This document shows, piece by piece, positions 9,122 to 64,000 of a DNA stretch of 64,000 nt (positions within the stretch are counted from its first letter, which is position 1; each line of letters begins with the position of its first letter). The notes beneath the pieces are model-generated. The model ran no database searches and had not been told where the DNA came from. It was given only the letters and a program-made list of their open reading frames with translations. Both the position numbers and the translations under genes were made by a program. Origin of the DNA: Eledone cirrhosa (Eukaryota); assembly GCA_964016885.1 (NCBI GenBank), contig OZ024761.1, positions 23,684,001 through 23,748,000 on the forward strand. Direction: 5' to 3'.

Positions 9122-9321
9122 NNNNNNNNNNNNNNNNNNNNNNNNNNNNNNNNNNNNNNNNNNNNNNNNNNNNNNNNNNNNNNNNNNNNNNNNNNNNNNN
9201 NNNNNNNNNNNNNNNNNNNNNNNNNNNNNNNNNNNNNNNNNNNNNNNNNNNNNNNNNNNNNNNNNNNNNNNNNNNNNNNNNNNNNNNNNNNNNNNNNNNN
9301 NNNNNNNNNNNNNNNNNNNNN
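9122..9321. other. Assembly gap (200 N)
   Basis: Run of n. Confidence 1.
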
Positions 9322-38934: not shown

Positions 38935-41120
38935 TCATCATCATCACTGCTTTACGTCCGTTCATCCACGCTAGCATGGGTTAGACAGGTTGTCCTGTTG
39001 TGGGCAATGTCCGGTCGGCTGACCATGCCTTGCTCATACGGGAACTGATTCTGGCTTGATTTCTACAGCTGGATGCTCTTCCTAACACCAACCTCATTTA
39101 CAATGAGTGCTGGGTGCTTTTTTACGTGGCGCCTACACGTCCACTTTACAGTGTGGTGCTGGGTGATTTTTGCCGTGGCACCTCCACAACCACTTTGCAG
39201 TGGGAAGGTGTGGGGGCATATTGTCTATAGGCTTGAGCTTCGGCTTGTACCCGTGGGGGCTCAGATCTTCAGTATTACTGCGTGACACCAGAGGTCACGG
39301 TCGTGTGTAATTGGGTAAGGTCAGCTTTTATCAACTCATCCCAGGTCTTCTTGGGTCTCCCCACTCCGCGGTTTCCATCGACTTCTAGTGCTCTGCACCT
39401 TTTTATGCAGCTGTCATCCTTCATATGCATCACATGTCCATACCAACGCAACCGCCTCTCCTGCACACAGCATTTGATTCCTCTTATGCTCAGTCTCCCT
39501 CTCAATTCATTTATGCTTTGCCGTTCATGTATATTACTATTACACATCCATCGGAGCATGCAGGCTTCGTTTCTTTCTAATCTACGCAAGTCTTCCGCAG
39601 ACAGCGCCCAGGTCTCACTACCATGTAACATTGCTGTTCGTATACATGCCTTTCATTTTGAGGGAAAAGCCTTTTGCAGCTAGCAGTGGCAGTAGCTCCC
39701 TGAACTAGTTAAGCCTCCTGAGATCCCGCTACATCTCTTGTGTACCCATTGTTTGCATTTGGGGCAGAGAATGGAGTTTCTACGTACACCTTTCCTACAT
39801 ACTGAGCAAGGCCATTTCCCTGAGGGGATCTGGGTTCTGTTTTCTCATCTACTTACAAGACCTTAGTCTTTGTCAGGTTGACTTTGAGACCCTTTTTTCT
39901 AGTCCCTGCTTGCAAGTTTGGAATTTCTTCTCTAGTTCTACCATAGATTCAGCTATAAGTGTGAAGTCATCTGCATACAGGAGTTCCCATGGGCATCTGG
40001 TCTTAAACTCCTCCGTTATTGGTTGCAGAACTATGATGAACAGGAGAGGGCTAAGAACAGAACCCAGGTGGACACGGACCTGTACGCTAAATTCCTCGCT
40101 AATCCTAACTTTGGTGACTGCTCCCCTATACATGGCTTGTACAGCTTTCACAAGCCATTCATCTACTCCTAGTTTTCTAAGAGCCCACCAGATTATAGCA
40201 CGGGGAACTCTGTCAAAGGCTTTCTCGAGATCGACGAATGCCAGGTAGAGCGGCTTACTTTTAGCTAGGTACTTTACCTGTAACTGCTTCACAAGGAAGA
40301 GGGCATCAGTGGTGCCTCTTCCTGGCACAAACCCAAATTGCATCTCATCTAGTTTCACCCGGTCCCTAATCAACTGTGCTATAACTCTTTCTGTTACTTT
40401 CATGACCTGATCCATCAGCTTTATACCTCTATAGTTTCCTCTATCTAGTGCATCACCTTTACCTTTGTAGCAGTTGACAATGATGCTACTGCTCCAATCC
40501 TTTGGTATGACACCTATTATTACCTGGTTAACAATACGTGTGGTTATGGTGTGACCTACCGACCCAGATGCCTTCAGCATCTCGGCAGTTATACTCGATG
40601 GACCGGTTGCCTTCCCTGTCTTCATATCTTTGATTGCCTTACTTACTACGCTGCTGCTGACTCCTCTATAGGGTCTACTTGGGGTAGGGTCTCTTCTTCC
40701 CATGCATTCTCCTCATTTAGTAATCTATCATAATGGCTCTTCCATGCATCTTTCTCCTCAGCACTTGTGAGAGCAAGCTCACCTTTATCATTCCGGATAC
40801 ACTTCTCTCCAATGACATCACAACTATCTCTGACACACTGCCTCGCAATCTTGAACACCTCCTGTTTCTGGTCCTCATGCTTGAATTTTCTATCCTCTGC
40901 TTCCCTCCTAGCTAAGTATACTTGTCGCCTAGCTTCCCTCCTGGTCTCTATGTAATGTACCCTGCTTCCCCCGTTCTTCCATTCTTTCCATGCCTGTCTC
41001 TTGGCCTTAACTGCCTCATCTACCTTACTGTTCCACCACCAAGTCACTCTCCTCCTTCCTATGGTCTTACTCCAGCCACATATCTCATCCGTCGCTTTAG
41101 TAAGTTATTTTCTAGGAACT
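38935..41120 (-). mobile_element. 5'-truncated RTE-clade LINE (RT domain, frameshifted) with 3' UTR and (GAT)n tail
   Basis: WWWN...NYRGIKL...QFGFVPGRGTTDA...FVDLEKAFDRVPR...GSVLSPLLF...LLYADD...LHGSETW...RLRWYGHV. Confidence 0.95.
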
Positions 41121-41352
41121 CCTAGTGCTCTTCTACATGTTTATATATATATATTATTATATATAACCAGGTGGACCAAAGTTCAGAACTAGATGTCGAA
41201 ACAGCCAGAGCTCAGCTGTTGGAGTCCTGACTCTTTTCCTATATATATGTATATGTTTATATATATTGTATGTCTGTATGAAAAATAAACAATAAGACAT
41301 CAGAATAATCATTAATTAAAGTAATGAACCCTTTATCATTATATTGAAACAG

Positions 41353-41522
41353 GAACCTCCAGTTGATGCCGAGCTCGTGGAGAAATTAGAGAGGCTCTCT
41401 CTAGTTGCATTTGATTCTGAAGTTGGTGTCCAACGTCTTCAACAAACTATTAAACTTGCTAACAAAGTCCTATCAGTTGACACAACTGGTGTGCAGCCTA
41501 TGGTCTATGTACATGATGACAG
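41353..41522 (+). CDS. GATC: Glutamyl-tRNA(Gln) amidotransferase subunit C, mitochondrial, exon 2
   Basis: EPPVDAELVEKLERLSLVAF...VDTTGVQPM; AG/GT boundaries. Confidence 0.9.
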
Positions 41523-42361
41523 GTAACTCATCTTTCTTTCTTTTTTCCCCCTCAACTGTGTATACCCTGTTTAGATTAGAGTAGGTACACCTTATCCCTA
41601 TGGGTTGTAAGAGGTGTCAGGAAGAGAATCTGGCCATAAAATAATATATACATATATGTATGTATACATACATCATCATCGTTTAATGTCTATCTTCCAT
41701 GTTGGCATAAGTTAGACGGGAATTGTCCCACTTGAGGAAAGATTGATTGGGTGACTGTGTCTCACTCGTATAAGACTGTATCTGGCAGGTTTTCTACAGC
41801 CGGATGCCCTTCCTATTTCTAACACCAACCACATTTACAGTGTGGACTGGGAGCCTTTTCACCGTGTCTCCTACACGATCACTCTAGGGTGTGGACTGGA
41901 TGTTCTGTGGTACCAACATAACTTTACAGAGAAAGAGGTGGAGTAGGGCATGTATATTTGGCTAAGAGGGGCCTACTGACTGTAGGGAAGGCTACTGTGT
42001 AGCACTAAAGGTCTTGATCCAGTGACATTGTCTTTGAGAGGTTCGATTTTATCCTGTCGTCCCAGGTTTTTCTGCATCTACTTACTCCTATACATATATA
42101 TATACACACATACATATATGGTGAAAATATTGACCTCGAATATAAGCCGAGCCCCTTTCTACCATTGATGTTTTTTGTTTTTTTTACATCACATATTCCA
42201 GTATATGTAATAAATAGAATATTACCTAAAATATCTTGAAACCAAATCTGTGTCTTTGTTACTTTTGTTTTATCATTTTAAATGTAATTTTTTGTTTTCT
42301 TTTATTTTATATTTCTCCGCATCATCCTCGGCTGGTGGTTGTTGAATTGCTTCTCCTCCAG

Positions 42362-42465
42362 ACCACTTCACCTGCGACCCGATGATGTTAATGAAGGCAA
42401 TGATAAGGAGGCTGTACTCAGCAATGCTACAAAATCTTTTGAAGATTATTACATTGCCCCACCAG
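42362..42465 (+). CDS. GATC: GATC exon 3
   Basis: CTCCAG|; PLHLRPDDVNEGN...LSNA...EDYYIAPP(G); |GTGAGA. Confidence 0.9.
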
Positions 42466-43585
42466 GTGAGAGATTCACCTAACCCTTCTCTTATCAGATT
42501 TTTAACCCTTTTATTGCTGTATTTTCTAATGTAAACCACTCTATTTCAATTAATTATTGAAGAAGTTTGAGAGATTTATTAAAATTATTATTTAAACCGG
42601 CCATATCTGGTTCAAACTGGCTGCTCGTATTGATGTTTAGGTATTGTTGTCAAAATAAATATGAAACTCTTATAGATTCGATATTATGTGAGGTAAAGCT
42701 TTTAGCATGAAAATACAATAGTATATCTAGAGTAACGTAAACGCTAAAGGGTTAATGTTGGTATAAGCGGCTGGTTTCAACAGAAAAAAGTGAGAAAATT
42801 CTGGCCAGATAGAGCCAGTTTAAATGTTAATGGGTTAATGTGATTTCATTTGAGAGTGAGATGCATGTTGTGCTGTGTATGAAAGTGGGTTTCAAAACTT
42901 GCGTTTGATATGAAGAAGAGTTGTAAACTCAGCTTCGCAAAGGTAGATTGTTGCATATGGAACAAATAGACCAAGTACTTTCTTAGAACTGCTCAGGAAC
43001 ATTGCAGTTTGTGATGCCCAGAAATTCTCCAATGTCTTCACTTAGAAAAGCATTTTTGCAGCTTTATCATGTTGTATGCCAATGATCTCTTTCAAAGGAT
43101 CTTAATCAGGCATGTCCCTTATCCAATGGCTGTAGGCTTCCAAATTTCTCACAGAAATATTCATCAAAGAATTTTGAGAGAGTTACTAAAATTATTCTTT
43201 CATTATACTAAGGTAGCAACTTATCATATGATACTTATATAAAATTAGCCATGTCAAACGAGAATTCTCTCACTTGTTTCTATTCAAACCTGCCACTCAC
43301 CAACCATCTTGCTCTGGGTCTCCTGTCAGTTGGTTTTACCCATAAAATCTGTCCAGCAATTCTTTCCTGAGACATTTTAACCACATGCCCATAAATATTG
43401 GAGCTGTGATCTCTCAATTCTTAGAAGCTTTACATGGAGTGACTCTCTGATCTCTAAGCTATACACTCTATTGAGTAATGTTAGTTCAAAGACCCTTTGG
43501 AGGAACCCCATTTCAGCCATTTCTATTTATATACAGTCATTACCCCAAAAGTTATAAATAATGTTTGTTTTTTATTGTCTTGCAG

Positions 43586-43611
43586 GGAACATACCACTGA
43601 AGAGATCTTAA
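43586..43611 (+). CDS. GATC: GATC exon 4 (terminal)
   Basis: TTGCAG|GG AAC ATA CCA CTG AAG AGA TCT TAA, completing APPGNIPL. Confidence 0.88.
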
Positions 43612-44304
43612 AAGAGAGAGCATGGAATGGAGACATTATTGTATATATGTAAAGTAAAACAAACAAAATCTTTATTTGTTTAATTTGATATGTTCTTTCT
43701 TTGTAATGCTGGTATCGACTTGTTCAGTTTGATACTATTGCGAATTGGTTCTTTCTGTCCAGGATTAGCATTTAAACCAGCCATGTCAGGTCAGAATTCT
43801 CTCACCTCATTCTGTTCAAGCTGGCCGTTCATACTGTCATTGGTATAGTTACCAAAATAAATAACATCAAAATCTCATAGATTCGATACTGTGTGAGATA
43901 AAGCCTTTACCGCAAAAATACAATAGTATATATAGAGTAATGTAAATGCTAAAGGGTTAACTCTTTTAATATCAACCCATCTAAAACCAGCCATTTTAAA
44001 GAGTTCCCATTTAAACTAAAAGATGTGAAGATAATATCCTCAGAGACCCTATCACTGTTGAATATCTTTCAATGAGAATACTCATCTTGTTGGTCGCAAA
44101 GGGACTGACCATCTAGACAGACCCTATCACTATGAAATCTTTCAACAGTGAAAATCCGAAAGGTAGTACATGTTATGGATAAAAACAACAAAATAGTAAG
44201 TTCCAAATTAATCTTTATTTCTATATCATAATCGGTTATTTCAACATACATAGTTTATTTCTTCCATGAATATGATCTACAAATGGAACAAAAAATTCTG
44301 TAAA

Positions 44305-44895
44305 GTTAATTTGACTAAATTTTCAGCAAAAATTGGCTGTATTTTGAACAAAAATTGGCTAAATTTTCAATAAAAATTCAGTATATTTTCACCGAAAATT
44401 GACTAAATTTTCAACAAAAATTGGCTGAATTTTCAGCAAAAATTGGCTGTATTTCCACCAAAAAATTGACAAACTTTTCAACAAAAGTTGGCTGTATTTT
44501 GAAAAAAAATTGACTAAATTTTGAACAAAAATTGGCTGAATTTTCAACAAAAATTGGCTGTATTTTCAGCAAAAATTGGCTAAATTTTCACCAAAAATTG
44601 ACAAACTTTTCAACAAAAGTTGGCTGTATTTTGAAAGAAAATTGACTGAATCTTGAACAAAAATTGGCTGAATTTTCACCAAAAGTTGACAAACTTTTCA
44701 ACAAAAGTTGGCTGTATTTTGAACAAATATTGACTAAATTTTCAACAAAAGTTGGCTGTATTTTGAAAGAAAATTGACTAAATCTTGAACAAAAATTGGC
44801 TGAATTTTCACCAAAAGTTGACAAACTTTTCAACAAAAGTTGGCTGTATTTTTAACAAATATTGACTAAATTTTCAACAAAAGTTGGCTGAATTT
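44305..44895. repeat. ~22-bp AT-rich satellite (second copy at 57315-57780)
   Basis: AAAATTG(G/A)CT(G/A)(A/T)ATTTTCA(A/C/G)CA units. Confidence 0.9.
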
Positions 44896-45203
44896 AACCC
44901 AGCTACTCCGATTGTCTCGAATACCACATAAGTTATTTTTACCCTTATCTTTATATGTTACTTATTTAGGGTCTTTGATAACATTTATTTCATCTTTTCT
45001 TTATAGTGGGGAGGGGTTAGCTGGATGTAGTATCTTTCAGACAGAAATTCATTTCCCAGTGTCTGTCATGACATGTCAGCCTAAACCAAGCAAACCTTTC
45101 GTTCATAGATATTCTTCCAACCGTGACCATCTCGTGTTACTTAGTATTTCTGACATTGTGTATCTAGAAATATGTCTCTTACATTTTAAGAGAATATAGG
45201 GTA

Positions 45204-46663
45204 AAGTACCTAGCTAAAAGTAAGCCACTCTACTTGTAATTTGTCGACCTTGAGAAAGCCTTTGACAGAGTTCCACGTGCTGTAATCTGGTGGGCTCTTA
45301 GAAAACTAGGAGTAGATGAATGGCTTGTGAAAGCGGTACAAGCCATGTATAGAGGAGCAGTCAGCAAAGTTAGGATTAGCAATGAGTATAGCGTACAGGT
45401 TGGGGTCCACCAAGGCTCTGTTCTTAGCCCCCTCCTGTTCATCATAGTCCTGCAGGCAATAACGGAGGAGTTTAAGACCGGATGCCCATGGGAACTCCTG
45501 TATGCTGATGACCTCGCACTCATAGCTGAATCTATGGTAGAACTAGAGAATAAATTCCAAACTTGGAAGCAGGGACTAGAAAGAAAGGGTCTCAAAGTCA
45601 ACATGACAAAGACTAAGGTCCTTGTAAGTAGATGAGAAAACAGAACCCAGATCCCCTCAGGGAAATGGCCTTGCTCAGTATGTAGGAAAGGTGTAGGTAG
45701 GAACTCCATTCTCTGCCCCAAATGCAAACAATGGGTACACAAGAGATGTAGCGGGATCTCAGGAAGCTTAATTAAGAATGTAGGCTTCACATGCAGCAGC
45801 TGTGCTGAGACAGCAAGCAGCAAACAGCCACAGGAAACAAGTACCACCAATCTCTGGGAGGGCTCTGTAGAAACAGTAGACAGCTTCTGCTACCTAGGTG
45901 ACTGAATTAGCAGCGGAGGTGGGTGTTCAGAAAGTACAATAACTAGGGTAAGAATGGGATGGAAGAAGTTTAGGGAACTACTACCACTGCTAGCTGCAAA
46001 AGGCTTCTCCCTCAGAATGAAAGGCAGACTGTATGATGCGTGTATCCGAACAACAATGTTGCATGGTAGTGAGACCTGGGCGCTGAAGGTGGAAGACTTA
46101 CGTAGATTAGAGAGAAACGAAGCCTGCATGCTCCGATGGATGTGTAACAGTAATATAAACGAACGACAAAGCATAAATGAATTGAGAGAGAGACTGAGCA
46201 TAAGAGGAATCAAATGCTGTGTGCAGGAGAGGCGGTTGTGCTGGTATGGACATGTGATGCGTATGAAGGATAACAGCTGCAGAGCACTAGAAGTCGATGG
46301 AAAATGCGGAGTGGGGAGACCCAAGATGACGTGATAAAAGCCGACCTTACCCAAGACTGTGACTTCTGGCGTCACGCAGTAATACAGAGTACCCGACCTC
46401 CCATGGGTACAAGCTGAAGCATATAGACAATATGCCCCCACCGCAAGGTGGTCGTGGAGGTGCCACGGCAAAAAAGCACCCAGCCCACACTGTAAAGTGG
46501 ACGTGTAGGCGCCACGAAAAAGCACCTAGCACTCACTGTAAATGAGGTTGGTGTTAGGAAGGGCATCCAGCTGTAGAAATGAAGCCAAATCAGTTCCTGT
46601 ATGAGCAAGGCATGGTCAACCCGTGCTAGCGTGGAAGAACGGACGTAAAACGGTGATGATGAT
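45204..46663 (+). mobile_element. 5'-truncated RTE LINE, present only in duplicate copy A
   Basis: HQGSVLSPLLF...LLYADDLAL...GWKKFRELLP...; (GAT)n tail; empty site at 58277/58278. Confidence 0.93.
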
Positions 46664-48697
46664 GAGTGTAATTTGAGGAAGATATAGCAGCTATGTTTAG
46701 CTACCTCACTGGTACCACACATAGATCTTATTGCCTCGCTGTATATTGCCCCATCTTCAATCTTGTCATATCTGTATTTAACAGGCACTAACAAACAAAT
46801 GTAAATAAGATTAGGTCAACACATGACCTAGCCATCTCATTCCATTTCTGTACACAATATTCATCACGGGCTCCCTACTCCTTTTACCCAGTCACTTTCA
46901 TCCTTCCTCATCACATGACCTAGCCATTTCATGCTAGTGCAGTATGGGCCCAGCCCATGTCTAACTTAATAGCACCACCTGTATATATACATACACACAC
47001 ACAGACATATATATATTTACACATATGATAGCTGCAAACTCTGCTAAGAGCATTGCTATCGCTTCTCAGATTACAGAAAATGGTGCACTTTTAGGCTACG
47101 GCCAGTCACACGAGCTTGTCACAGATCCTGAACAAGTAATTCCTGTGCTTTGAAGGTTTTTTTTCAAGTGGGGAAAAGCCTTGCACTCGATCAATCCCAC
47201 TCTCTGATCATCGAAAACACTACCCGAGGTGTTGTGACAACAACGGGGGGGGGGGGGGGGCTATCACTCCCAGGTAAAAAAAGAAGTACTATTTGGGTGG
47301 TCGTTGACTCTGCCCTTTGTCGGGTCTTGTATTTATCCCGCAGGGTGTCCAAATATCACCCTCCTCACTAAGCAAGCTTGGTTGGGCTGCCGGTTTAATT
47401 GTCGACGCCCCGACCATATATACACCTAAATAGATTTGTATCTTGAAATAAGTATATATGTAGAAAAAACTAGTAGTTCTTCAATGGCTATATATCCTAT
47501 TATATTTATATATAGAAACGGAAAGACAGCGACATAACACTCGGAATATATCGTGTTACCTCGCTGTGTTTCCGTTTTTTTTTTTAGAAAAAGAAAGAAA
47601 ACTTTAGCCATAAGTATGCCTATTTGACTTAGTAGAATTGCGGCTTGTGCGTGGCGCTGCACGTAGCGTTTCTGGCTTCGCTGTCGTACTTCGGTATGGC
47701 ATGACCACTCTATCGCGTCTGAAGTTCGAATCGTTGCGGGGTCGGCCGGGACTATTAGCAGGCTGGCTTTATGCTGGCCTGCGTCCCCCTCGCATGAGTT
47801 TTTACTAAAAAAATCCAATTAGAGTTATCTGCCCTTTGATTGAATTATCTCCCCCTTGTGGAACTCTTCTTTCTTCGTTGTCATTTCTCGTTAGTGTGTT
47901 GAAGCGTTAACATCATTCGAGTTACACTGGGACTACTGCCAACATCACTTTGGATTTTACCTCCGTCTAAACAAGTAAGTAATATTTTATTTTCCACAAA
48001 CTAATTCTAACACACATATTGAGATACAAAAATACGTTTTTCTATATACAAGAAGACACATTTTCTTTTTGGAACACACACAAAGCTACATTGTAAATAT
48101 ATAAACTCTTTGAATATGGCCGTAAATTCAATTTAAACATTCGCCGATAAATGTACACATGAAACTACATTTTTCCTTATATACTGGCAGAATAAAGTTA
48201 CATAAACCCATGAGACGATATACATATTACCAGAGCTACATTTTATTATCTAACGAACACCTCTCAACACTGTATACATTTATATATATAAATGTTGTAT
48301 AAACCTTCTCTCTTCCATTGAGAAAATAAACCATACGGCTATATTTTACATCTAACGAAACATGGTAGCTTCATACCGTGTATGTAGCTCTCTAAACACC
48401 TCCTTACCACATTATGTATGTATAAACCTTCTCTCTCAGACTATATACATACTACCAGAGCTACATTTATACTTCTCTTGAGAAAATAAACCATAAGGCT
48501 ATATTTTATTATCTAACGAAACATGGTAGCTTCACATCTCTAAACTCCTTACTACATATAAACACTCTTCACTAGATACGAAACTAAACTCCGTACTACA
48601 TTTAGCACCCTCACCTACTTGATCGCTATACTATCTATGTGTAAACACTCTTCACTAGATACGAAACTAAACCTATTTTATATTACTAACAATCAAC

Positions 48698-48886
48698 TAC
48701 AGGCTGGTCCGAAAGTCTTGTCACTGCCTACCAAAAAGTAATGAGAAACAGTTTACGTTGCCATCGCAGTGAAGTCATGTGAGAGATCCTCTTACCAGAA
48801 TACACACGATCATGTGTCCATACACCCCCCCCAGAAGATTATATTATTAAAACAATATGTGACAAGACTTATCGGACCACCCTGTA
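48698..48886. mobile_element. ~190-bp Tc1/mariner-type MITE nested in the foldback arm (also 52258-52444 and 60356-60540)
   Basis: TA-CAGGCTGGTCCGAAAGTCTTGTCAC ... GTGACAAGACTTATCGGACCACCCTG-TA. Confidence 0.75.
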
Positions 48887-49889
48887 CATCTCTTTTTGAA
48901 GAGGAAACCTAAATAAACGAATAAACCAAACTTTTTCTTTGTTGTTTATTATTGTGTTCTGTATATATATGTAAACATACATCTACAAAATGATATACCT
49001 GATCCTCTTAGAAACTACTATATTATATACATAAAGCTCCTCTATACAGTGTTATTGTTTAGCTACATGCCCATTAGAATAGAGCATCTAAACCCACATT
49101 ATTTGTGTCCGAGGTTAACTTTGCCTTTCATCCTTACGGGGTCGATAAAATAAAGTACCAGTAATGTACTGGGTAATTTCTGGCCTTGCGCCAATAGTAG
49201 AAACAATTATTTGTGTCTGTTTATATTATGCTATACTTCCACTTGTATCAGATTCCCATAACACAACTATATCATATAGATGTTATTTCTACTTATTCTT
49301 GATCAAAATAAACAACACTAGTTTCATTCGTAGACATATATACACACACTTGTCTATAGGAAGTTGTATTCTATATTTACAATGTCCGACAGAAAATAAA
49401 CCCACATCATGTGTGTACAAGTTAAGAAACTGTATTCTAATTTATGTTCTTCTGAAAACATAATTTTAGTAATACAACTATATCAGATAGAAGCTATTTC
49501 TTTCTTATGAAACTCTATATACACACTCTTGGTGCCTTACAGGCTCCTGATTTCTTTAATAAAGAAAACACAAGCTTTATTAATAGACATATACCTAGCT
49601 TACTAGTATAAATAACTGTTATTGTCTAGTTAGAATGTAAATAGAGATTGGGCTTAGTTCTGAGTTTCTTTCTTTAGAAACCTCGTGTATACTTGCATTG
49701 TATAGAACATCTATACACTGGAAGTAATCAGACAAATTGTATATAACAAGTAAACATTTTGTTACTATATACACACACATTATTAGTGCTTATCTATACC
49801 TGTAAGTAAACTCTGTATTATATAGAACACATGTGTCTCTCTATATAGACATATTGTTAGTTTCTTTCTTTAGAAACTTCATATATTTC

Positions 49890-50630
49890 TGATATGTAAG
49901 TAAACCCTATATACATCTACGTGTGTCTGCTATACACACGTATGTATATATAGATAATCATTCCCAATAGGTGATGTGTAAGTAAACCCTATATACATTT
50001 ACGTGTGTCTACTATACACACGGATGTATATATAGATAATCATTCCCAATAGGTGATGTGTAAGTAAACCCTATATACATTTACGTGTGTCCACTATACA
50101 CACGGAGGTGATATGTAAGTAAACCCTATATACACGGATGTATATATAGATAATTATTCCTAATAGGTGATGTGTAAGTAAACCCTATATACAGATAATT
50201 ATTCCTAATAGGTGATATGTAAGTAAACCCTATATACACGGATGTATATATAGATAATTATTCTTAATAGGTGATGTGTAAGTAAACCCTATATACAGAT
50301 AATTATTCCTAATAGGTGATATGTAAGTAAACCCTATATACACGGATGTATATATAGATAATTATTCCTAATAGGTGATGTGTAAGTAAACCCTATATAC
50401 AGATAATTATTCCTAATAGGTGATGTGTAAGTAAACCCTATATACAGATAATTATTCCTAATAGGTGATGTGTAAGTAAACCCTATATACAGATAATTAT
50501 TCCTAATAGGTGATGTGTAAGTAAACCCTATATACAGATAATTATTCCTAATAGATAATGTGCAAGTAAACCCTATATACACGGATGTATATATAGATAA
50601 TTATTCCTAATAAGTGATATGTAAGTAAAC
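49890..50630. repeat. 45-bp-core tandem repeat inside the foldback arm (counterpart 61605-62450)
   Basis: GGTGATGTGTAAGTAAACCCTATATACAGATAATTATTCCTAATA units with variable inserts. Confidence 0.9.
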
Positions 50631-53417
50631 TCTTTATACACTGATCATGTGTATATAAATACCTGTTCTCTGTAGAGAAGAAGCAAGCAAGTAAGTAATC
50701 CTTCTCTATACATTACATACACAGTTACTGCTGTTGTATAGAGTACAGCATACATATAGCGTGCCCCTATATACACTGATTATGTGTATACAAACAATTC
50801 TTCTCTATAGAGAAGAAAACACTCATCAAGTAATCTCTCTCTCTCTATATATATATATACACACACACTGTTGGTTTCTAAATAAAGAAACTTCATATGC
50901 ATCTATTTCTACTCGGTAAGTATACACTTGCTAGGTGTATATAAATTAATTCTCTCTCCAGAAGTAATAACAGTATATATACTTCTGCCTAGAGAAGCCA
51001 TCTCTAGATTTATACACACACTTACCATTATAATCCTAGTTTCTCTCCTTTAGAAACTTTATATATACCTACCTTCTCTTCAATACGCCTTATTAAGAAA
51101 CAACTAAACACACATTTAATACGTATACATTCTTTATTTACAGGAACTTGGTTATTCCCACAACATCACTTGAAGGCTGAACATCTATAAAAGGAAATCA
51201 TTTATATACGTTATCAATAAAAAGAATATAAAACTATTCCTATTTTGTGTCTTTTATTACTACAGTGATTGAGGTACTTACGTATCCATGAAGTTTCTAA
51301 AGAAAGAAACCAATAATTCTCTATAGAGAATTAATTATATACAGTTACATCTCCTTTTTCTAAAGGAGGAAACTTGGAATGTATATTATAGGGTCTACTT
51401 ACTCTATAGAGAAAAGTTATTTATATACACGTAATAAGTGTACATAGAGGTTACTTACCTCAGGTAAGGGTTATAAAGCTTTTTACAGTGTGTGTGTATA
51501 TAGAGTTAACCGAAATCATATATATGAAGTTTCTAAATAAAGAAACACACGTTGTATGGAAGCCGTATTGTATATAATAAATACAGAGCTTCTTACAATA
51601 GAGAAATAAACATACTGTTTGTATATAGCGTACTTAGTTGTTTCTAATGGGGATGTTACTATCAAAAGTCTACATGAGGTTTCTAAAGAAGCTCAGAATG
51701 TATGAATAATACTACAACAGAGTTATATGAGGTTCTTTTAAGAAAGAAACTCCTCAGTAAGACGTACCAACAACAACGTAAGTGTATATAAAGTTTCTAA
51801 AGAAAGAAACTGTGTGTATCTAGACAATAACAGTAAGGTATATCGTTATGTCTACGAATGAAACTAGTGTTGTTTATATTGACAAAGAGATGAAGATAGA
51901 GTTATGGATTCTTATTTTATACACATATGTATAGCATAATGTAAATAGACACACATGCTGTATTCTATAGGGTACAACTTATTTTTAATAAATATATATC
52001 TAGGCATGTATGCCTACAGTAGCTGTTTCTCTAGATTACTGTGTACATGTATACAAAAGGGAATACGACTTCTTTCTAATGGGTATGTAGCTAAACAATA
52101 ACACTGTATAGAGGGGCTTTATGTATATAATATAGTAGTTTTGTAAGAGGATCAGGTAGATGTATGTTTACATATATATATACAGAACACAATAATAAAC
52201 AACAAAGAAAAAGTTTGGTTTATTCGTTTATTTAGGTTTCCTCTTCAAAAAGAGATGTACAGGGTGGTCCGATAAGTCTTGTCACATATTGTTTTAATAA
52301 TATAATCTTCTGGGGGGTGTATGGACACATGATCGTGTGTATTCTGGTAAGAGGATCTCCTACACGACTTCACTGCGATGGCAACGTAAACCTTTTTTTC
52401 ATTATTTTTGGTAGGCAGTGACAAGACTTTCGGACCAGCCTGTAGTTGATTGTTAGTAATATAAATTAGATTTAGTTTCGTATCTAGTGAACGGTGTTTA
52501 TACATAGATAATATAGCTATCAAGTGGGTGAGGGTGCTAAATGTAGTAAGGAGTTTAGAGAGCTACCATGTTTCATTAGATGTAAAATATAGCCGTATGG
52601 TTTATTTTCTCAATGGAAGAGAGGTGTATATATAAATTTAACTGTATCCCTCCACTGTTGAGAGGGCTTCGTTAGATAATAAAATGTAGCTCTGGTAATA
52701 TGTATATAGTCTCAGAGAGGTTTATATATTAATGTAACTTTATTCTGCCAGTATATAAGAAAAAATGTAGTTCATGTGTACATGAAAGATAGTAGAACAT
52801 TTATCGGCGAATGTTTAAATTGAATTTACGGCCTTATTCAAAGAGTTTATATATTTACAATGTAGGTTTGTGTGTGTTTCCAAAAAGTGTCTTCTTGTAT
52901 ATAGAAAAACGTATTTTTGTATCTCAATATGTGTGTTAGAATTAGTTTGTGGAAAATAAAGTATTACTTACTTGTTTAGACGGAGGTAAAATCCAAAGCG
53001 ATGTTGTCAATATTCCCAGTGTAACTCGAATGATGTTAACGCTTCAACACACTAACGAGAGATGACAACAAAGAAAGAAGAGTTCCACAAAGGGGAGGTA
53101 ATTCAATCAAAGGGCAGATAACTCTAATTGGATTTTTTTAGTAAAAACTCATGCGAGGGGGACGCAGGCCAGCCTGCTAATAGTCCCGGCCGACCCCGCA
53201 ACGATTCGAACTTCAGACGCGATAGAGTGGTCATGCCATACATAAGTACGACAGCGAAGCCAGAAACGCTACGTGCAGCGCCACGCACAAGCCGCAATTC
53301 TACTAAGTCAAATAGGCATACTTATAGCTAAAGTTTTCTAAAAAAAAAGACAGCGAGACAACACGAATTATTCCGAGTGTTATGTCGCCGTCTTTCCGTT
53401 TCTATATATAAATATAA

Positions 53418-54585
53418 TGCAGACAGTATTTGATTCCTCTTATGCTCAATCTCTCTCTCAATTCTTTTATGCTTTGCCGTTCGTGTATATTACTATTATG
53501 CAGGCTTCGTTTTTTTCTAATCTACGCAAGTCTTCCGCAGACAGCGCCCAGGTCTCACTACCATGTAACATTGCTGTTCGTATACACGCATCATACAGTC
53601 TGCCTTTCATTTTGAGGGAAAAGCCTTTTGCAGCTAGCAGTGGCAGTAACCCCCTGAACTTCTTACATCCCGTTATTGTACTTTCCGAACACCCACCTCC
53701 GCTGCTAATTCGGTCACCTAGGTAGCAGAAGCTGTCTACTGTTTCTACAGAGCCCTCCCAGAAGAGTTTGGTGGTACCTGTTTGCTGTCCCAGCACAGCT
53801 GCTACATGTGAAGCCTCCTGAGATCCCACTACATCTCCTGTGTACCCATTATTTGCATTTGGGGCTGAGTATGGAGTTTCTACCTACATACTGAGCAAGG
53901 CCATTTCCCCGAGGGGATCTGGGTTCTGTTTTCTCATCTACTTAGAAGACCTTAGTCTTTGTCAGGATGACTTTGAGACCCTTTCTTTGTAGTCCCTGCT
54001 TCCAAGTTTGGAATATCTTCTCTAGTTCTACCATAGACTCAGCTATAAGTGTGAGGTCATCTGCATACAGGAGTTCCCATGGGCATCCGGTCTTAAACTC
54101 CTCCGTTATTGCTTGCAGAACAGGGCCCTGGTGGAGACGGACCTGTACGCTATAGTCATTGCTAATCCTAACTTTGGTGACTGCTCCCCTCTACATGGCT
54201 TTCACAAGCCATTCATCTACTCCTAGTTTTCTAAGAGCCCACCAGATTATAGCATGGGGAACTCTGTCAAAGGCTTTCTCGAGATCGACGAATGCCAGGT
54301 AGAGCGGCTTACTTTTAGCTAGGTACTTTACCTGTAACTGCCTCACAAGGAAGAGGGCATCACATCTAGTTTCACCCGGTCCCTAATCAACTGTGCTATA
54401 ACTCTTTCTGTTAGTTTCATGACCTGATCCATCAGCTTTATACCTCTATCTAGTGCATCACCTTTATCTTTGTAGCAGTTGACAATGATGCTACTGCTCC
54501 AATCCTTTGGTATGACACCTATTATTACCTGGTTAACAATACTTGTGGTTATGGTGTGACCTACCGACCCAGATGCCTTCAGCAT
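53418..54585 (-). mobile_element. Duplicated RTE fragment (copy of 39462-40580)
   Basis: Collinear with 39462-40580, with small indels. Confidence 0.9.
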
Positions 54586-56657
54586 TAAACTCGCTAACAA
54601 AGTCCTATCAGTTGACACAACTGGTGTGCAGCCTATGGTCTGTGTACATGATGACAGGTAACTCATGTTTTCTTTCTTTTTCCCCCCTCAACTGTGTATA
54701 CCCTGTTTAGATTAGAGTAGATACACCTTATCCCTGTGGGTTGTAAGGTGTCAGGAAGAGAATCTGGCCATAAAATAATATATACATACATCATCATCGT
54801 TTAATGTCTATCTTCCATGTTGGCATAAGTTAGATGGGAATTGTCCCACATGAGGTAAGATTGATTGGGTGACTGTATGTGGCTGGTTGTCCTTCCTATT
54901 TCTAACACCAACCACATTTACAGTGTGGACTGGGATCCTTTTCACCGTGTCTCCTACACGATCACTCTAGGGTGTGGACTGGATGTTCTGTGGTACTAAC
55001 ATAACTTTACAGAGAAAGGGGTGGAGTAGGGCATGTATATTTGGTTAAGAGGGGCCTACTGACTGTAGGTTAACTTTGTATGTAGGAAAGGCTACTGCGT
55101 AGCACTAAAGGTCTTGATCCAGTGCCATTGTCTTTGAGAGGCTCGATTTTATCCTGTCGTCCCAGGTTTTTATGCATCTACTTACTCCTATACATATATG
55201 GTGAAAATATTGACTTCGAATATAAGCCGAGCCCCTTTCTACCATTGATGTTTTTTGTTTTTTTTACATCACATATTCCAGTATATGTAATAAATAGAAT
55301 ATTACCTAAAATATCTTGAAACCAAATCTGCGTCTTTGTTACTTTCATTTAATTTTTTCTTTTCTTTTATTTTTATATTTCTCCGCATCATCGTCGGCTG
55401 GTGGTTGTTGAATTACTTCTCCTCCAGACCACTTCACCTGCGACCCGATGATGTTAATGAAGGCAATGATAAGGAGGCTGTACTCAGCAATGCTACAAAA
55501 TCTTTTGAAGATTATTACATAGCCCCACCAGGTGAGAGATTCACCTAACCCTTCTCTTATCAGATTTTTAACCCTTTCATTGCTGTATTTTCTAATGTAA
55601 ACCACTCTATTTCAATTAATTATTGAAGAATTTTGAGATTTATTATTTAAACCGGCCATATCTGGTTCAAACTGGCTGCTCATATTGATGTTTAGGTATT
55701 GTTGTCAAAATAAATAATATGAAAATCTTATAGATTCGATATTATGTGAGGTAAAGCTTTACCATGAAAATACAATAGTATATATAGAATAATGTAAACG
55801 CTAAAGGGTTAATGTTGGTATAAGCGGCTGGTTTCAACAGAAAAAAGTGAGAAAATTCTGGCCAGATACAGCCAGTTTAAATGTTAATGGGTTAACGTGA
55901 TTTCATTTGAGAGTGAGATGCATGTTGTGCTGTGTATGAAAGTGGGTTTCAAAACTTGTTTTTGATATGAAGAAGAGTTGAAAACTCAGCTTCGCAAACG
56001 TAGATTGTTGCATATGGAACAAATAGACCAAGTATTTTCTTAGAACTGCTCAGGAACATTGCAGTTTGTGATGCCCAGAAATTCTCCAATGTCTTTATTT
56101 AGAAAAGCATTTTTGCAGCTTTATCATGTTGTATGCTCTTTCAAAGGATCTTAATAAGGGATGTCCCTTATCCAATGGCTGTAGGCTTCCAAATATTTCT
56201 CAAAGAATTTTGAGAGAGTTACTAAAATTATTCTTTCATTATACTAAGGTAGCAACTTATCATATGATACTTATATAAAATTAGCCATATCAAACGAGAA
56301 TTCTCTCACTTGTTTCTATTCAAACCTGCCACTCACCAACCATCTTGCTCTGGGTCTCCTGTCAGTTGGTTTTACCCATAAAATCTGTCCAGCAATTCTT
56401 TCCTGAGACATTTTAACCACATGCCCATAAATATTGGAGCTGTGATCTCTCAATTCTTAGAAGCTTTACATGGAGTGACTCTCTGATCTCTAAGCTATAC
56501 ACTCTATTGAGTAATGTTAGTTCAAAGACCCTTTGGAGGAACCCCATTTCAGCCATTTCTATTTATTTGTGATCAGATACAGTCATTACCCCAAAAGTTA
56601 TAAATAATGTTTGTTTTTTATTGTCTTGCAGGGAACATACCACTGAAGAGATCTTAA
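54584..56657 (+). pseudogene. GATC: Partial GATC duplicate: exon 2 remnant (54584-54657), exon 3' (55428-55531), exon 4' (56632-56657)
   Basis: Lacks exon 1 and the exon 2 acceptor and 5' half; exons 3' and 4' intact and in phase. Confidence 0.85.
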
Positions 56658-59096
56658 AAGAGAGAGCATGGAATGGAGACATTATTGTATATATGTAAAG
56701 TAAAACAAACAAAATCTTTATTTGTTTAATTTGATATGTTCTTTCTTTGTAATGCTGGTATCGACTTGTTCAGTTTGATACTATTGCGAATTGGTTCTTT
56801 CTGTCCAGGATTAGCATTTAAACCAGCCATGTCAGGTCAGAATTCTCTCACCTCATTCTGTTCAAGCTGGCCGTTCATACTGTCATTGGTATAGTTACCA
56901 AAATAAATAACATCAAAATCTCATAGATTCGATACTGTGTGAGATAAAGCCTTTACCGCAAAAATACAATAGTATATATAGAGTAATGTAAATGCTAAAG
57001 GGTTAACTCTTTTAATATCAACCCATCTAAAACCAGCCATTTTAAAGAGTTCCCATTTAAACTAAAAAATGTGAAGATAATATCCTAAGAGACCCTATCA
57101 CTGTTGAATATCTTTCAACGAAAATGATCATCTTGTTGGTCGCAAAGGAACTGGCCATGTAGAGAGACCCTATCACTATGAAATCCGAAAGGTAGTACAT
57201 GTTATGCATAAATACAAAATAGTAAGTTCCAAACTAATCTTTATTTCTATATCATAATCGGTTATTTCTTCCATGAATATGATCTACAAATGGAACAAAG
57301 AATTCTGTAGAAGTTAATTTGACTAAATTGGCTGTATTTTGAACAAAAATTGGCTGAATTTTCACCAAAATTTGGCTGTATTTTCAGCAAAAATTGACTA
57401 AACTTTGAACAAAAATTGGCTGAATTTTCACAAAAAATTGACAAACTTTTCAATAAAAGTTGGTTGTATTTTCAACAAAAATTGGCTAAATTTTCACCAA
57501 AAATTGGCAAATTTTTCAACAAAAGTTGGCTGTATTTTCAACAAAAATTGGCTAAATTTGCAATAAAAATTGAGTAAATTTTCACCAAAAATTGACTAAA
57601 TTTTCAACAAAAGTTGGCTGAATTTTCAGCAAACATTGACTAAATTTTCACCAAAAATTGACAAACTTTTCAACAAAAGTTGGCTGTATTTTGAACAGAA
57701 ATAGACTAAATTTTGAAGATAAATTGGCTGAATTTTCAGCAAAAATTAGCTAAATTTTCAACAAAAATTGACTAAATTATAAAAAAAATATATATATGCT
57801 CTCAAAGACACAAAAAATAATAAAACGTGAGTTTCCTTCTAAATATTGTTCAGGATATTGTCACAGGTGATAGCGAAACTAAGGACCTTTATAAACATTG
57901 TGTAATACTTTAGTAAGGCAAGTCGTCAACCATGATAGAAACTTTGTTGTTAGTAACCCAGCTACCTCGATGTCTCGAATACAACATAAGTTTTTTAGAT
58001 GTTAGTTTATTTTTACCCTTATCTTTATACGTTACTTATTTAGGGTCTTTGATAACATTTATTTCATCTTTTCTTTATAGTAGGGAGGGGTTAGCTGGAT
58101 CTAGTATCTTTCAGACAGAAATTAATTTCTCGTTGTCTGTCATGACATGTCAGCCTAAACCAAGCAAACCTTTCGTCCATAGATATTCTTCCAACCGTGA
58201 CCATCTCGTGTTACTTAGTATTTCTGACATTGTGTATCGAGAAATATGTCTCTTACATTTTAAGAGAATATAGGGTAGAGTGTAATTTGAGGAAGATATA
58301 GCAGCTATGTTTAGCTGAGATAGGCTACCTTACATAGATCTCACCCCATCTTCAATCTTATTGTCATATCTGTATTTAACAGGCACTAACAAACAAATGT
58401 AAATAAGATTAGGTCAACACATGACCTAGCCATCTCATTCCATTTCTGTACACAATATTCATCATGGGCTCCCTACTCCTTTTACCCAGTCACTTTCATC
58501 CTTCCGCATCACATGACCTAGCCATTTCATGCTAGCGCAGGATGGGCCCAGCCCATGTCTAACTTAATAGCACCACCTGTATATATACATACACACACAG
58601 ACATATATATATTTACACATATGATGGCTGAAAACTCTGCTAAGAGCATTGCTATCGCTTCTCAGATTAGAGTAAATGGTGCACTTTTAGGCTACGGCCA
58701 GTCACACGAGCTTGTAACAGATCCTGAACAAGTAATTCCTGTGCTTTGAAGATTTTTAATCCCACTCTCTGATCATCGAAAACACTACCCGAGGTGTTGC
58801 GACAACAACGGGGGGGGGGGGGCCTATCACTCCCAGGTAAAAAAAGAAGTACTATTTGGGTGGTCGTTGACTCTGCCCTTTGTCGGGTCTTGTATTTATC
58901 CCGCAGGGTGTCCAAATATCACCCTCCTCACTAAGCAAGCTTGGTTCGGTTGCCGGTTTAATTGTCGACGCCCCGACCTTATATACACCTAGATAGATTT
59001 GTATATAATATATATGTTAGCATCTTGAAATAAGTATATTTATTGGCATGTATATATGTAGAAAATACTAGTAGTTCTTCAATGGCTATATATCCT

Positions 59097-62000
59097 ATTA
59101 TATTTATATATAGAAACGGAAAGAAGGCGACATAACACTCGGAATATATCGTGTTGTCTCGCTGTCTTTCCGTTTTTTTTTTTAGAAAAAGAAAGAAAAC
59201 TTTAGCCATAAGTATGCCTATTTGACTTAGTAGAATTGCGGCTTGTGCGTGGCGCTGCACGTAGCGTTTCTGGCTTCGCTGTCGTACTTCGGTATGGCAT
59301 GACCACTCTATCGCGTCTGAAGTTCGAATCGTTGCGGGGTCGGCCGGGACTATTAGCAGGCTGGCTTTATGCTGGCCTGCGTCCCCCTCGCATGAGTTTT
59401 TACTAAAAAACCCAATTAGAGTTATCTGCCCTTTGATTGAATTATCTCCCCCTTGTGGAACTCTTCTTTCTTCGTTGTCATTTCTCTTTAGTGTGTTGAA
59501 GCGTTAACATCATTCGAGTTACACTGGGACTACTGCCAACATCACTTTGGATTTTACCTCCGTCTAAACAAGTAAGTAATATTTTATTTTCCACAAACTA
59601 ATTCTAACACACATATTGAGATACAAAAATACGTTTTTCTATATACAAGAAGACACATTTTCTTTTTGGAAACACACAAACCTACATTGTAAATATATAA
59701 ACTCTTTGAATATGGCCGTAAATTCAATTTAAACATTCGCCGATAAATGTTCTACTATCTTTCATGTACACATGAAACTACATTTTTCCTTATATACTGG
59801 CAGAATAAAGTTACATTGATATATAAACCTTCTCTATGAGACTATATACATATTACCAGAGCTACATTTTATTATCTAACGAACACCTCTCAACACTGTA
59901 TACATTTCTGTTTATAGTGGAGGGATAAAGTTACATTTATATATATAAATGTTGTATAAACCTTCTCTCGTCCATTGAGAAAATAAACCATACGGCTATA
60001 TTTTACATCTAACGAAACATGGTAGCTTCATACCGTGTATGTAGCACTTTAAACTCCTTCTTACCACATTATGTATGTACAAACCTTCTCTCTCAGACTA
60101 TATACATACTACCAGAGCTACATTTATACTTCTCTTGAGAAAATAAACCATAAGGCTATATTTTATTATTTAACGAAACATGGTAGCTTCACATCTCTAA
60201 ACTCCTTACTACATATAAACACTCTTCACTAGATACGAAACTAAACTCCGTACTACATTTAGCACCCTCACCTACTTGATCGCTATACTATCTATGTGTA
60301 AACACTCTTCACTAGATACGAAACTAAACCTATTTTATATTACTAACAATCAACTACAGGCTGGTCCGAAAGTCTTGTCACTGCCTACCAAAAAGTAATA
60401 AGAAACGGTTTACGTTGCCATCGCAGTGAAGTCATGTGAGAGATCCTCTTACCAGAATACACACGATCATGTGTCCATACACCCCCAGAAGATTATATTA
60501 TTAAAACAATATGTGACAAGACTTATCGGACCACCCTGTACATCTCTTTTTGAAGAGGAAACCTAAATAAACGAATAAACCAAACTTTTTCTTTGTTGTT
60601 TATTATTGTGTTCCGTATATATGTAAACATACATCTACCTGACCCTCTTAGAAACTACTATATTATATACATAAAGCTCCTCTATACAGTGTTATTGTTT
60701 AGCTACAGGCCCATTAGAATAGAGCATCTAAACCCACGTTATTTGTGTCCGAGGTTAACTTTGCCTTTCATCCTTACGGGGTCGATAAAATAAAGTACCA
60801 GTAATGTACTGGGTAATTTCTGGCCTTGCGCCAATAGTAGAAACAATTATTTGTGTCTGTTTATATTATGCTATACTTCCACTTGTATCAGATTCCCATA
60901 ACACAACTATATCATATAGATGTTATTTCTACTTAAGAACTCTATATTCTTGATCAAAATAAACAACACTAGTTTCATTCGTAGACATATATACACACAC
61001 ACTTGTCTATAGGAAGTTGTATTCTATATTTACAATGTCCGACAGAAAATAAACCCACATCATGTGTGTACAAGTTAAGAAACTGTATTCTAATTTATGT
61101 TCTTCTGAAAACATAATTTTAGTAATACAACTATATCAGATAGAAGCTATTTCTTTCTTATGAAACTCAATATACACACTCTTGGTGCCTTACAGGCTCC
61201 TGATTTCTTTAATAAAGAAAACACAAGCTTTATTAATAGACATATACCTAGCTTACTAGTATAAATAACTGTTATTGTCTAGTTAGAATTAAGCCCAATC
61301 TCTATTTACATTCTGAGTTTCTTTCTTTAGAAACCTCGTGTAATATACGTTACTACTACTATCCTATAGTAAACTCTGTTGTAGTAGTAGTACTCATACA
61401 TTGAGTTTCTTTAGAAACCTCGTGTATAGAACACTGGAAGTAATCAGACAATACGCATATAACAAGTAAACATTTTGTTACTATATATACACACACATTA
61501 TTAGTGCTTATCTATACCTGTAAGTAAACTCTGTATTATATAGAACACATGTGTCTCTCTATATAGACATATTGTTAGTTTCTTTCTTTAGAAACTTCAT
61601 ATATTTCTGATATGTAAGTAAACCCTATATACATCTACGTGTGTCTGCTATACACACGTATGTATATATAGATAATTATTCGTAATAGGTGATGTGTAAG
61701 TAGACCCTATATAATCATTCGTGATATGTAAGTCAACCCTATATACATTTACGTGTGTCTACTATACACACGGATGTATATAATCATTCCTAATAGGTGA
61801 TGTGCAAGTAAACCCTATATACACATGGATGTATATATAGATAATTATTCCTAATGGGTGATATGTCAGTAAACCCTATATACATTTACGTGTGTCTGCT
61901 ATACACACGGATGTATATATAGATAATGTGTAAGTAGACCCTATATACATTTACGTGTGTCTGCTATACACACGGAGGTGATATGTAAGTAAACCCTATA

Positions 62001-64000
62001 TACACGTATGTATATATATAGATAATTATTCGTAATAGGTGATGTGTAAGTAAACCCTATATACATTTACGTGTGTCTACTATACACACGTATGTATATA
62101 TAGATAATCATTCCCAATAGGTGATGTGTAAGTAAACCCTATATACACGGATGCATATATAGATAATTATTCCTAATAGGTGATGTGTAAGTAAACCCTA
62201 TATACATTTACGTGTGTCTACTATACACACGGAGGTGATATGTAAGTAAACCTCATATACACGGATGTATATATAGATAATGTGTAAGGAAACCCTATAT
62301 ATATATTTACGTGTGTCTGCTATAAACACGGATGTATATATATAGATAATCATTCCAAATACGTGATATGTAAGTAAACCCTATATATACATGGATGTAT
62401 ATATATATAGATAATTACTCCTAGTAGGTGATATGTAAGTAAACTCTTTATATACTGATCATGTGTATATAAAAACCTGTTCTCTGTAGAAAAGAAGCAA
62501 GTAAGTAATCCTTCTCTATACATTACATACACAGTTACTGCTGTTGTCTAGAGTACAGCATACATATAGTGTGCCCCTATATACACTGATTATGTGTATA
62601 TAAACAATTCTTATCTATAGAGAAGAAACAATTCAGTAAGTGATCTCTATATACACTGTTAGTTTCTAAATAAAGAAACTTCATATGTATTTATTTCTAC
62701 TCGGTAAGTATACACTTACTAGGTGTATATAGATTAATTCTCTCCAGAAGTAATAACAATGTATATACTTCTGCCTAGAGAAGCCATCTCTATATATACA
62801 CAAACACTTACCATTATAATCCTAGTTTCTCTCCTTTAGAAACTTTATATATACTTACCTCCTCTTTAATACACCTTATTAAGAAACAACTAAACACACA
62901 TTTAATACGTATACATTCTTTATTTACAGGAACTTGGTTATTCCCACAACATCACTTGGAGGCTGAACATCTATAAAAGGAAATCATTTATATACGTTAT
63001 CAATAAAAAGAATATAAAACTATTCCTATTTTGTGTCTTATTACTACAGTGATAGAGGTATGTATCATAAAAGAAACTCAGAATGTTTCTTAAATGAGGT
63101 ATATACAGTGTACTTACCTATCCATGAAGTTTCTAAAGAAAGAAACCAATAATTCTCTATAGAGAATTAATTATATACACATAATCAGTGTATACAGTTA
63201 CATCTCCTTTTTCTAAAGGAGGAAACTTGGAATGTATATTATAGGGTCTACTTACTTGATCATTTCTTCTCTATAGAGAAGTGTCACCTCCATACACGTA
63301 ATAAGTGTATATAGAGGTTACCTACCTAAGGTAAAGAATATAAATATTCCTACAGTAGGTGTGTATATAGAGTTTACTTACATATCACTAATTATATATA
63401 TATATGAAGTTTCTAAATAAGGAAACTAAGAGTGTGTGTATATATATAGAGAGAGAGACACACATGCTGTATTCTATAGAATACTACAATAAGTATGTAT
63501 ATAATAAATACAGAGTTTACTTACTTACGTGTAGAGTTTCTTATATAAAGAAACACTTATCGTGTGTGTATATAGCGTACTTAATTGTTTCTAATATGGG
63601 TATGTTATTATCCAAAGTGGTAAATGAAGGTCTGTGTATATTGATTAGGATGTACTAAGAAGAATGCAAGTCTCTAAAGAAGCTCAGAATGTATGATTAC
63701 TACTACAACAGAGTTATATGGGGTTCCTAAAGAAAGAATATACATATAGATTACAGTGTGTATATAATTCTAACTAGACAATAACATTTATACTCGTAGG
63801 TTAAGTATATCATTACATGCCTATGAATGAAACTAGTTTTCTCTTTATTAAAGGAATCAGGTTCCTTACAGGCACCAAGTGTGTATATAGAGTTTCTTAA
63901 GAAAGAAATAGCTTCTATATGATATAGTTGTATTAGAATACAGTTTCTTATCTTGTGCAAACATGGTGTGGGTCTGTTTTCTATAAGGTATGTACCGTGG
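59097..64000. mobile_element. Second copy of the foldback element (left arm, centre ~62875-63050, start of right arm; runs off the window)
   Basis: Collinear with 47499 onward; 63840-63935 is the reverse complement of 49470-49570. Confidence 0.8.

Follow-up and report, generated by a model that had tools for sequence, protein, structure and literature searches.

The window, that is, the whole 64-kb stretch of DNA analysed here, is rich in microsatellites and dispersed repeats, and carries exons of a gene for GatC. The exon at 41353-41520 has a weak Pfam match to GatC (E 0.004, below the cut-off), and its translation shares 82% identity across 56 aa with the mitochondrial GatC proteins of Octopus sinensis and O. 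bimaculoides, with only three matches among 33 candidates. This places the source among the octopods, though it need not be one of these two species. The last three GatC exons are duplicated (41353-43612 and 54584-56660), and in the second copy the first of the three lacks its 5' part, so that this copy is probably dead. A tandem duplication of ~12-14 kb is evident; its unit A occupies 39462-53417, and unit B starts at 53418 and continues beyond the end of the window. A LINE-like insertion at 45208-46663 is present in unit A and missing from unit B, and a 22-bp satellite downstream of GatC occurs in both units (44311-44895 and 57325-57788), where it is far more divergent than its neighbours. 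Elsewhere in the window are an assembly gap of 200 bases (9122-9321) and an inverted repeat of 255 bp without mismatches around a loop of 6 nt (1248-1763), which could stem from a templated inversion of very recent date or from a foldback artefact in the reads.

The foldback element and its arms

Downstream of GatC, ~3.9 kb 3' of its stop, begins the first copy of a non-coding foldback element of ~5.9 kb (47499-53418); a second copy lies inside the tandem duplication (Table 1). The alignment between the arms of copy 1 becomes patchy inward and stops at about 51070/51280, with scores of 94 and 132 where shuffled sequences average 33 and 44 and same-strand controls score 64 and 81. Long inverted repeats of variable length surround a short middle and the copy has no coding capacity, as in foldback (long-TIR, non-autonomous) elements, and judged by its sequence the build is that of such an element.

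Table 1. Positions of the foldback copies and of their observed and predicted features in the window
Feature	Position	Strand	Remarks
Left arm, copy 1	47499-51075	+	~95-97% identity to right arm in outer part, patchy in inner part
Subterminal hairpin, ~62 nt	47516-47577	+	17 nt inside left end; z -7.05
CpG-rich block and candidate first exon	47588-47974	+	Mirror on right arm
First inward splice donor, left arm	47975-47983	+	5.1 bits
Minisatellite, 45-104 bp units	49890-50640	+	13 GTAAGT, all on inward strand
Unpaired loop, copy 1	51092-51260 (about 51075-51275, ~200 bp)		Houses both facing terminal-exon signals
Minus poly(A) signal	51098-51138	-	TTTATT 51133-51138; GU-rich downstream element 51114-51098
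Plus 3' splice site	51116-51143	+	TTAAT (51116) as branch-like motif, then pyrimidine tract and CAG with its last base at 51143; 7.1 bits
Core between acceptors, 41 bp	51144-51184		Sole overlap of the two predicted mature RNAs
Minus 3' splice site	51185-51221	-	TAG at 51185; acceptor 51185-51200; 3.9 bits; branch-like motif near 51217
Plus poly(A) signal	51216-51255	+	AATAAA 51216-51221; GU/U-rich downstream element 51243-51255
Right arm, copy 1	51275-53418	-	End coincides exactly with entry point into interior of LINE-like repeat
Mirror donor, right arm	52963-52971	-	5.1 bits
LINE-like flank of right arm	53418-54165	+	35/589 sites differ from the copy at 39462, then 5/300
Foldback copy 2	59097-64000		Right end outside window
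Centre of copy 2	62878-63045		Acceptors 62929 (+) and 62971 (-); AATAAA 63002 (+) and 62919-62924 (-)

Several smaller repeats are nested in the element. Each of the three outer arms seen carries a 185-bp TA-flanked MITE-like insert, and a SINE-like insert, bounded by a target duplication of 12 bp, occurs in the left arms only; the labels LINE-like, SINE and MITE are presumptive ones, given from structure and not from a database. No target duplication of the foldback element itself is readable, since the flanks of copy 1 probably stem from different insertions and the right end of copy 2 lies beyond the window. The motif TCCT ends both the left flank of the element (47495-47498) and the LINE site matching its right junction (39459-39462), possibly reflecting a target preference without duplication, or chance.

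Searches for genes within the element gave little. Among 96 open frames of at least 35 aa, Pfam returned no credible family: seven frames had rows at E<=0.05, and these were taken as chance, including a CxC1/KDZ match (E 0.009, below the cut-off) and an LVIVD match to the translated minisatellite, of which no stretch passes alone. Neither a MULE nor a THAP/P transposase was matched by Pfam in these copies, and no family of the parvoviral NS/VP blocks appeared among the 96 frames. A word search with a 130-aa arm frame gave three candidates, none of which scored, and a full HMMER search with a 64-aa arm frame gave two matches, both to long repetitive proteins in which weak repeats sum (the best 39% over 33 aa), which were set aside. 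The Rfam scan of 46600-64000 yielded 15 weak matches, all far under their gathering scores and none in the loop, and ARAGORN found no tRNAs.

The subterminal hairpin recurs at 59114-59175 and about 53345-53401, with z between -5.5 and -7.1 across the ends. It has the size of a pre-miRNA and is followed by a T run, several of the differences among its three copies preserve or improve pairing, and no Rfam family matches it. Inward of it, the CpG observed/expected ratio reaches 1.76 (47500-47749) and 1.56 in the block of the other arm. The candidate first exon of the left arm is free of ATG beyond 47794, and its inter-arm differences (14/518 vs 33/705; p=0.097) do not support extra conservation. 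The occurrence of a CpG-rich block and a donor in both arms is suggestive of inward promoters, CpG content alone being what points to promoter activity there.

The minisatellite is confined to the inner left arms, the outer arm not being tandem, and that of copy 2 (61600-62460) bears 11 GTAAGT, again all on the inward strand. Lying just upstream of the loop, this GTAAGT-bearing array could serve to bind U1. An 18-bp module combining a mini-hairpin with an acceptor-like site occurs 19 times in the two copies (span 49496-51810 and 61149-63909), mostly facing inward, and is otherwise absent from the window. Its interpretation as a histone stem-loop was dropped, the loop being of 6 nt and Rfam giving no match.

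Facing splice and polyadenylation signals in the loop

The preliminary description had named, from the letters of the sequence, an acceptor and an AATAAA on each strand of the loop together with two arm donors. All of these were verified, the donors lying at 47975 (+) and 52971 (-), and the loop sites recur in copy 2. The minus poly(A) signal does lie, as had been reported, within the pyrimidine tract of the plus acceptor; a T-rich tract, read on its reverse strand, would thereby yield the AATAAA of the other strand. Scores were taken from a generic weight matrix that was built from approximate frequencies, with no training on the present genome. By these scores, the plus acceptor is the best inward acceptor of the element on the plus strand and ranks with the highest 0.25% of the AG sites that lie outside the element, the GatC acceptors scoring 7.9, 6.6 and -2.0 bits for comparison. 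The minus acceptor is moderate, a score of 3.9 bits being reached 1.3 times per kb per strand. Each AATAAA of copy 1 is followed, about 20-40 nt further on, by a GU-rich element, under a rule that was picked after the site had been seen and that 6/146 AATAAA outside the element obey; copy 2 departs from the strict form of this rule on one strand, where a 2-bp deletion lies.

The minus acceptor is a weak mirror image of the plus acceptor over 30 nt, only 2/127 other acceptor-like sites being as alike, and past 30 nt the likeness is lost (12, 25 and 23 of about 127). Such a weak likeness would fit an origin in which a single acceptor was duplicated in inverted orientation. A palindrome spanning the entire loop was rejected (local score 28, p=0.071, non-significant), and folding of either strand of the loop gave no stable structure (z -0.06 to +1.08). 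The minus exon carries an ATG immediately after the AG and a 10-codon frame, in which the lone substitution between the copies is synonymous (assessed by hand); little weight is given to this.

The rarity of the arrangement was assessed as a composite of two facing acceptors no more than 120 nt apart, each with AATAAA after it. Within the 64 kb the composite is found only at the centres of the two copies, at thresholds of 3.0, 3.9 and 3.9/7.1, and it arose in 1/5000 dinucleotide shuffles of the loop and 0/200 of the whole element, figures that are optimistic as p-values because the score thresholds were chosen once the site was known. A matrix-free rule of at least 8 pyrimidines in 10 again returns the two centres only, whereas 7 in 10 admits 7 further places.

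From these signals, the plus last exon would extend from 51144 to about 51240 and the minus last exon from 51184 to about 51110, the cleavage sites being predicted ones. The mature RNAs would then share a 41-nt overlap (51144-51184), located where their last exons begin, so that the overlapping sense/antisense 3' ends proposed at the outset are inexact. The predicted 3' tail of each RNA would be complementary, in antisense, to its partner's branch region and pyrimidine tract. Rival inward acceptor-like sites lie upstream on both strands, e.g. at 51053 (plus, 6.5 bits, 90 nt upstream) and 51297 (5.0); in the right arm, four inward sites stronger than the minus acceptor lie upstream of it, and a further acceptor-like site stands just inside either end of the element (47587 and 53338). 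The predicted introns contain 10 AATAAA on the plus and 5 on the minus strand, two on each satisfying the downstream rule. U1 binding is a suppressor of premature poly(A) signal use, and the intronic AATAAA would need suppression of some kind, perhaps via U1 on the 13 GTAAGT of the minisatellite. Donors have no inward bias along the arms (5/8, 3/7, 5/10 and 7/4); the corresponding acceptor counts, which are not independent, are 10/3, 5/2, 9/3 and 3/3. Given the rival upstream acceptors, the unbiased donors and the intronic AATAAA, the candidate junctions 47974^51144 and 52972^51184 would be one of several possibilities.

The second copy and the conservation of the centre

Compared with each other, the two centres differ by one substitution (51173) over 51092-51251, so that the single difference ascribed earlier to a ~160-bp block is correct for that span; directly after it comes a 2-bp indel in the plus downstream element. 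The second copy is not a simple independent one, since it lies within the tandem duplication. The background divergence of the duplication is 64/2692 sites (2.4%), against which the 2/181 differences in the centre do not stand out (p=0.44), and outside the element 713/3285 sliding windows of 165 columns, or 4/21 non-overlapping blocks of that width, are as conserved as the centre.

Divergence within the element is uneven, amounting to 35/2361 (1.5%) left of the minisatellite, 37/486 (about 8%) right of it and 25/260 (~10%) just right of the loop. The flanks had been described as rich in indels, which is true of some of them and untrue of the outer left arm, where 23/1843 sites differ between the copies. 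Measured against the 8-10% flanks, the centre is better conserved in a site permutation (53/20000 as good, p 0.003), but the inter-copy substitutions are clustered, and block permutations, which respect clustering, give 1416, 2657 and 3151 of 20000 (p 0.07-0.16). The view that the centre is more conserved than the arms therefore holds against these flanks by sites, and neither against the background nor by blocks; conservation of the centre is at most suggestive.

The raised divergence runs from the minisatellite into the LINE-like flank, where the excess over the duplication background is marked (35/589 vs 64/2692, p=2.5e-5), and this tract suggests that the two centres derive from independent insertions. 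A second switch point of the duplication is probably located at 53418-54165. On the simplest account, the tract at about 50600-54165 of copy 1 would derive from a separate member of the family, inserted in a different LINE copy and brought in by two repeat-mediated switches. Such switches would also have made the duplication, in the manner of the chimeric Galileo copies described in the cited passages (PMC3573991). An assembly join in copy 1, instead of a true recombinant, is a possible source of the same pattern. Either way, loops from insertions about 8-10% apart would still differ at just 2/181 sites, and a chimeric origin of copy 1 would partly rescue the comparison of the centres. The divergence step and the foreign LINE flank are indirect indications of a second insertion. 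The foldback element appears to have driven the partial duplication of GatC.

Interpretation of the loop and comparison with known systems

As the best reading of the motifs, a two-way terminal exon is proposed for the loop, with putative transcription, splicing, cleavage and purpose built on the anatomy given above; we rate it at somewhat under an even chance. On either strand, four separate features come together, and the signals fall precisely within the unpaired part. The bidirectional module of the preliminary description gains from the GU-rich elements, from the mirrored CpG block and donor and from the position in the loop, and is weakened by the moderate minus acceptor, the rival acceptors, the intronic AATAAA, the unbiased donors and the borderline conservation. 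With the same tentative confidence, the whole may be viewed as a non-autonomous long-TIR element whose inward-transcribed arms would share the two-way terminal exon, blocking hairpin read-through. RNA polymerase II would start in each arm, and each arm transcript would splice to the facing loop acceptor and be cleaved about 75-100 nt later, every transcript stopping at the axis before copying the opposite arm. The products would be two short spliced non-coding RNAs with a common first exon. The arms may have been extended inward through inverted duplication of the 5' part of the element, in which case the two acceptors would be diverged mirror copies.

The purpose of such a module may be to avoid self-complementary RNA of kilobase length, which would expose the family to RNA interference or editing; the animal group to which octopods belong is known for heavy editing of double-stranded RNA. 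Where long inverted repeats have promoters in their arms, hairpin RNA and silencing of the family by its own members would be expected, the outcome seen with Mu killer. A two-way terminal exon that occurs naturally at the axis would offer a simple escape from self-silencing. That an octopod foldback family keeps a 170-bp two-way loop exon under selection as an anti-hairpin device is a further step, and an unlikely one; the 3' tails being antisense to the branch point and pyrimidine tract of the partner, the two RNAs could then be mutually exclusive, and long-TIR elements could in this way undergo transcription yet escape self-silencing.

An alternative, which we consider doubtful, is an arrangement in which one terminal exon is live (most likely the plus one) and the other is a decayed mirror relic, its AATAAA a by-product of the reversed T-rich tract. 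The acceptor scores (7.1 vs 3.9 bits), the weak mirror likeness of the acceptors (2/127) and the identity of the minus AATAAA with the plus tract itself are in line with this, yet a GU-rich element of its own follows the minus signal at a normal spacing, conservation is equal across the whole loop, and the minus exon opens with ATG right after the AG. It is improbable to a similar degree that nothing in the loop is functional, in which case the motifs would be dead relics or products of chance in a sequence rich in A and T, and the centres would be alike only through a recent segmental duplication. The coincidence of four features per strand, the strict composite with its 1/5000 shuffles and no other place in 64 kb, and the flanks that lie 8-10% apart on either side of the loop argue against mere chance, while the background of 64/2692, the 4/21 outside blocks that match the conservation of the centre, the non-significant block permutation and the 7 other places under the lax rule speak for it.

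Quite unlikely, in our estimate, is a natural gene trap, in which the module would mainly catch host transcripts in either orientation and the arms would not be promoters. The CpG-rich block and matched donor found in either arm would be superfluous in a passive trap, and trapping host genes would presumably be costly to a mobile element; an acceptor with a poly(A) signal in both directions is nevertheless the design of engineered mutagenic transposons (PMC4612416, as far as the cited passages go), an acceptor-like site lies inside each end of the element, and copy 1 begins about 3.9 kb past the GatC stop. Less probable still is that the conservation of the centre is only apparent, with fast-mutating inner arms (through local quasi-palindromes or arm-to-arm conversion) beside a loop that has no partner and whose role, if it has one, would be at the level of DNA. 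Stems of at least 8 bp do hold 51/148 sampled identical sites of the innermost left arm, vs 0/60 in the centre, and substitutions are clustered. Template-switch mutagenesis linked to stems was rejected all the same, substitutions not being enriched in them (16/37), and the inner right arm is 10% divergent though its stems are few (6/77). Arm-to-arm conversion is likewise no evident source of the flank divergence, within-copy homogenisation patterns numbering 1 and 0 against 44 and 61 left/right patterns, and the divergence carries on into the LINE flank. A decayed endogenous ambisense densovirus-like element with overlapping central poly(A) sites is scarcely credible and largely refuted by the 96 open frames, which contain no viral or transposase family. 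It would recall JcDV, whose tail-to-tail transcripts from repeat promoters overlap by 60 nt, and copy 1 has 5.9 kb and subterminal hairpins; but its arms mirror almost to the axis, leaving no space for two different genes, and its hairpin has 62 nt and lies 17 nt inside the end, vs 130 nt in JcDV (bioRxiv 10.1101/2020.04.06.028852, in the passages cited).

The proposed two-way terminal exon has partial parallels in several systems, here compared on the basis of the cited passages. In maize MuDR, promoters lie in the TIRs, and failure of termination in the middle leads to antisense RNA (PMC3440606). Convergent transcription from both TIRs with termination in the middle is similarly proposed for the present element, from sequence alone, yet MuDR has TIRs of ~215 bp and two different protein genes, whereas here kilobase arms are mirrored to the axis without coding. 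Mu killer resembles the element in having two copies of one end and the 5' part of the element in inverted orientation, but it silences its family by antisense or hairpin RNA, whereas the loop signals would block hairpin read-through (PMC3440606). The nearest natural analogue of a spliced non-coding foldback RNA is the Tm1/Cg-1 Mutator-Foldback of Meloidogyne, also non-autonomous, whose non-coding transcript is spliced and whose interior has a conserved signal for 3' processing; it differs in its one transcript, histone hairpin and 9-bp target duplications, as opposed to the two facing poly(A)-type terminal exons proposed here (PMC3169594). Galileo and other Foldback-like long-TIR elements share TIRs lengthened from internal sequence, longest in non-coding copies, as well as chimeric copies and rearrangements through ectopic recombination, while their P-type transposase, 7-bp duplication and terminal tandem domain were not seen here, and the Galileo passages describe no central two-way terminal exon (PMC3573991). 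JcDV offers promoters in inverted repeats and a compact central overlap of transcripts, yet NS/VP coding is absent here and the overlap would arise from two splice acceptors and not from coding ends (bioRxiv 10.1101/2020.04.06.028852). With no transposase or viral frame and no readable target duplication, whether of the 8-10 bp of Mutator or the 7 bp of P/Galileo, assignment of the element to Mutator, P/Galileo or the densoviruses is not supportable. In the literature searched, mainly open-access, nothing was found on an octopus foldback, on cephalopod long-TIR elements or on the same combination of features, and the family may already be catalogued in a repeat database such as Repbase or Dfam.

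Outside natural mobile elements, the TR-alpha2/Rev-erb-alpha pair comprises convergent units with an antisense overlap of final exons, but these are two unrelated mammalian protein genes and not a palindromic mobile element (PMC4569393, passages cited). Engineered transposons of the T2/Onc type carry an acceptor and a poly(A) signal in both directions within inverted repeats, together with a promoter and a donor; they are artificial and have one outward promoter, whereas the element is natural with two inward candidate promoters (PMC4612416, passages cited). If the loop acts as proposed, it would be a natural counterpart to engineered two-way gene traps.
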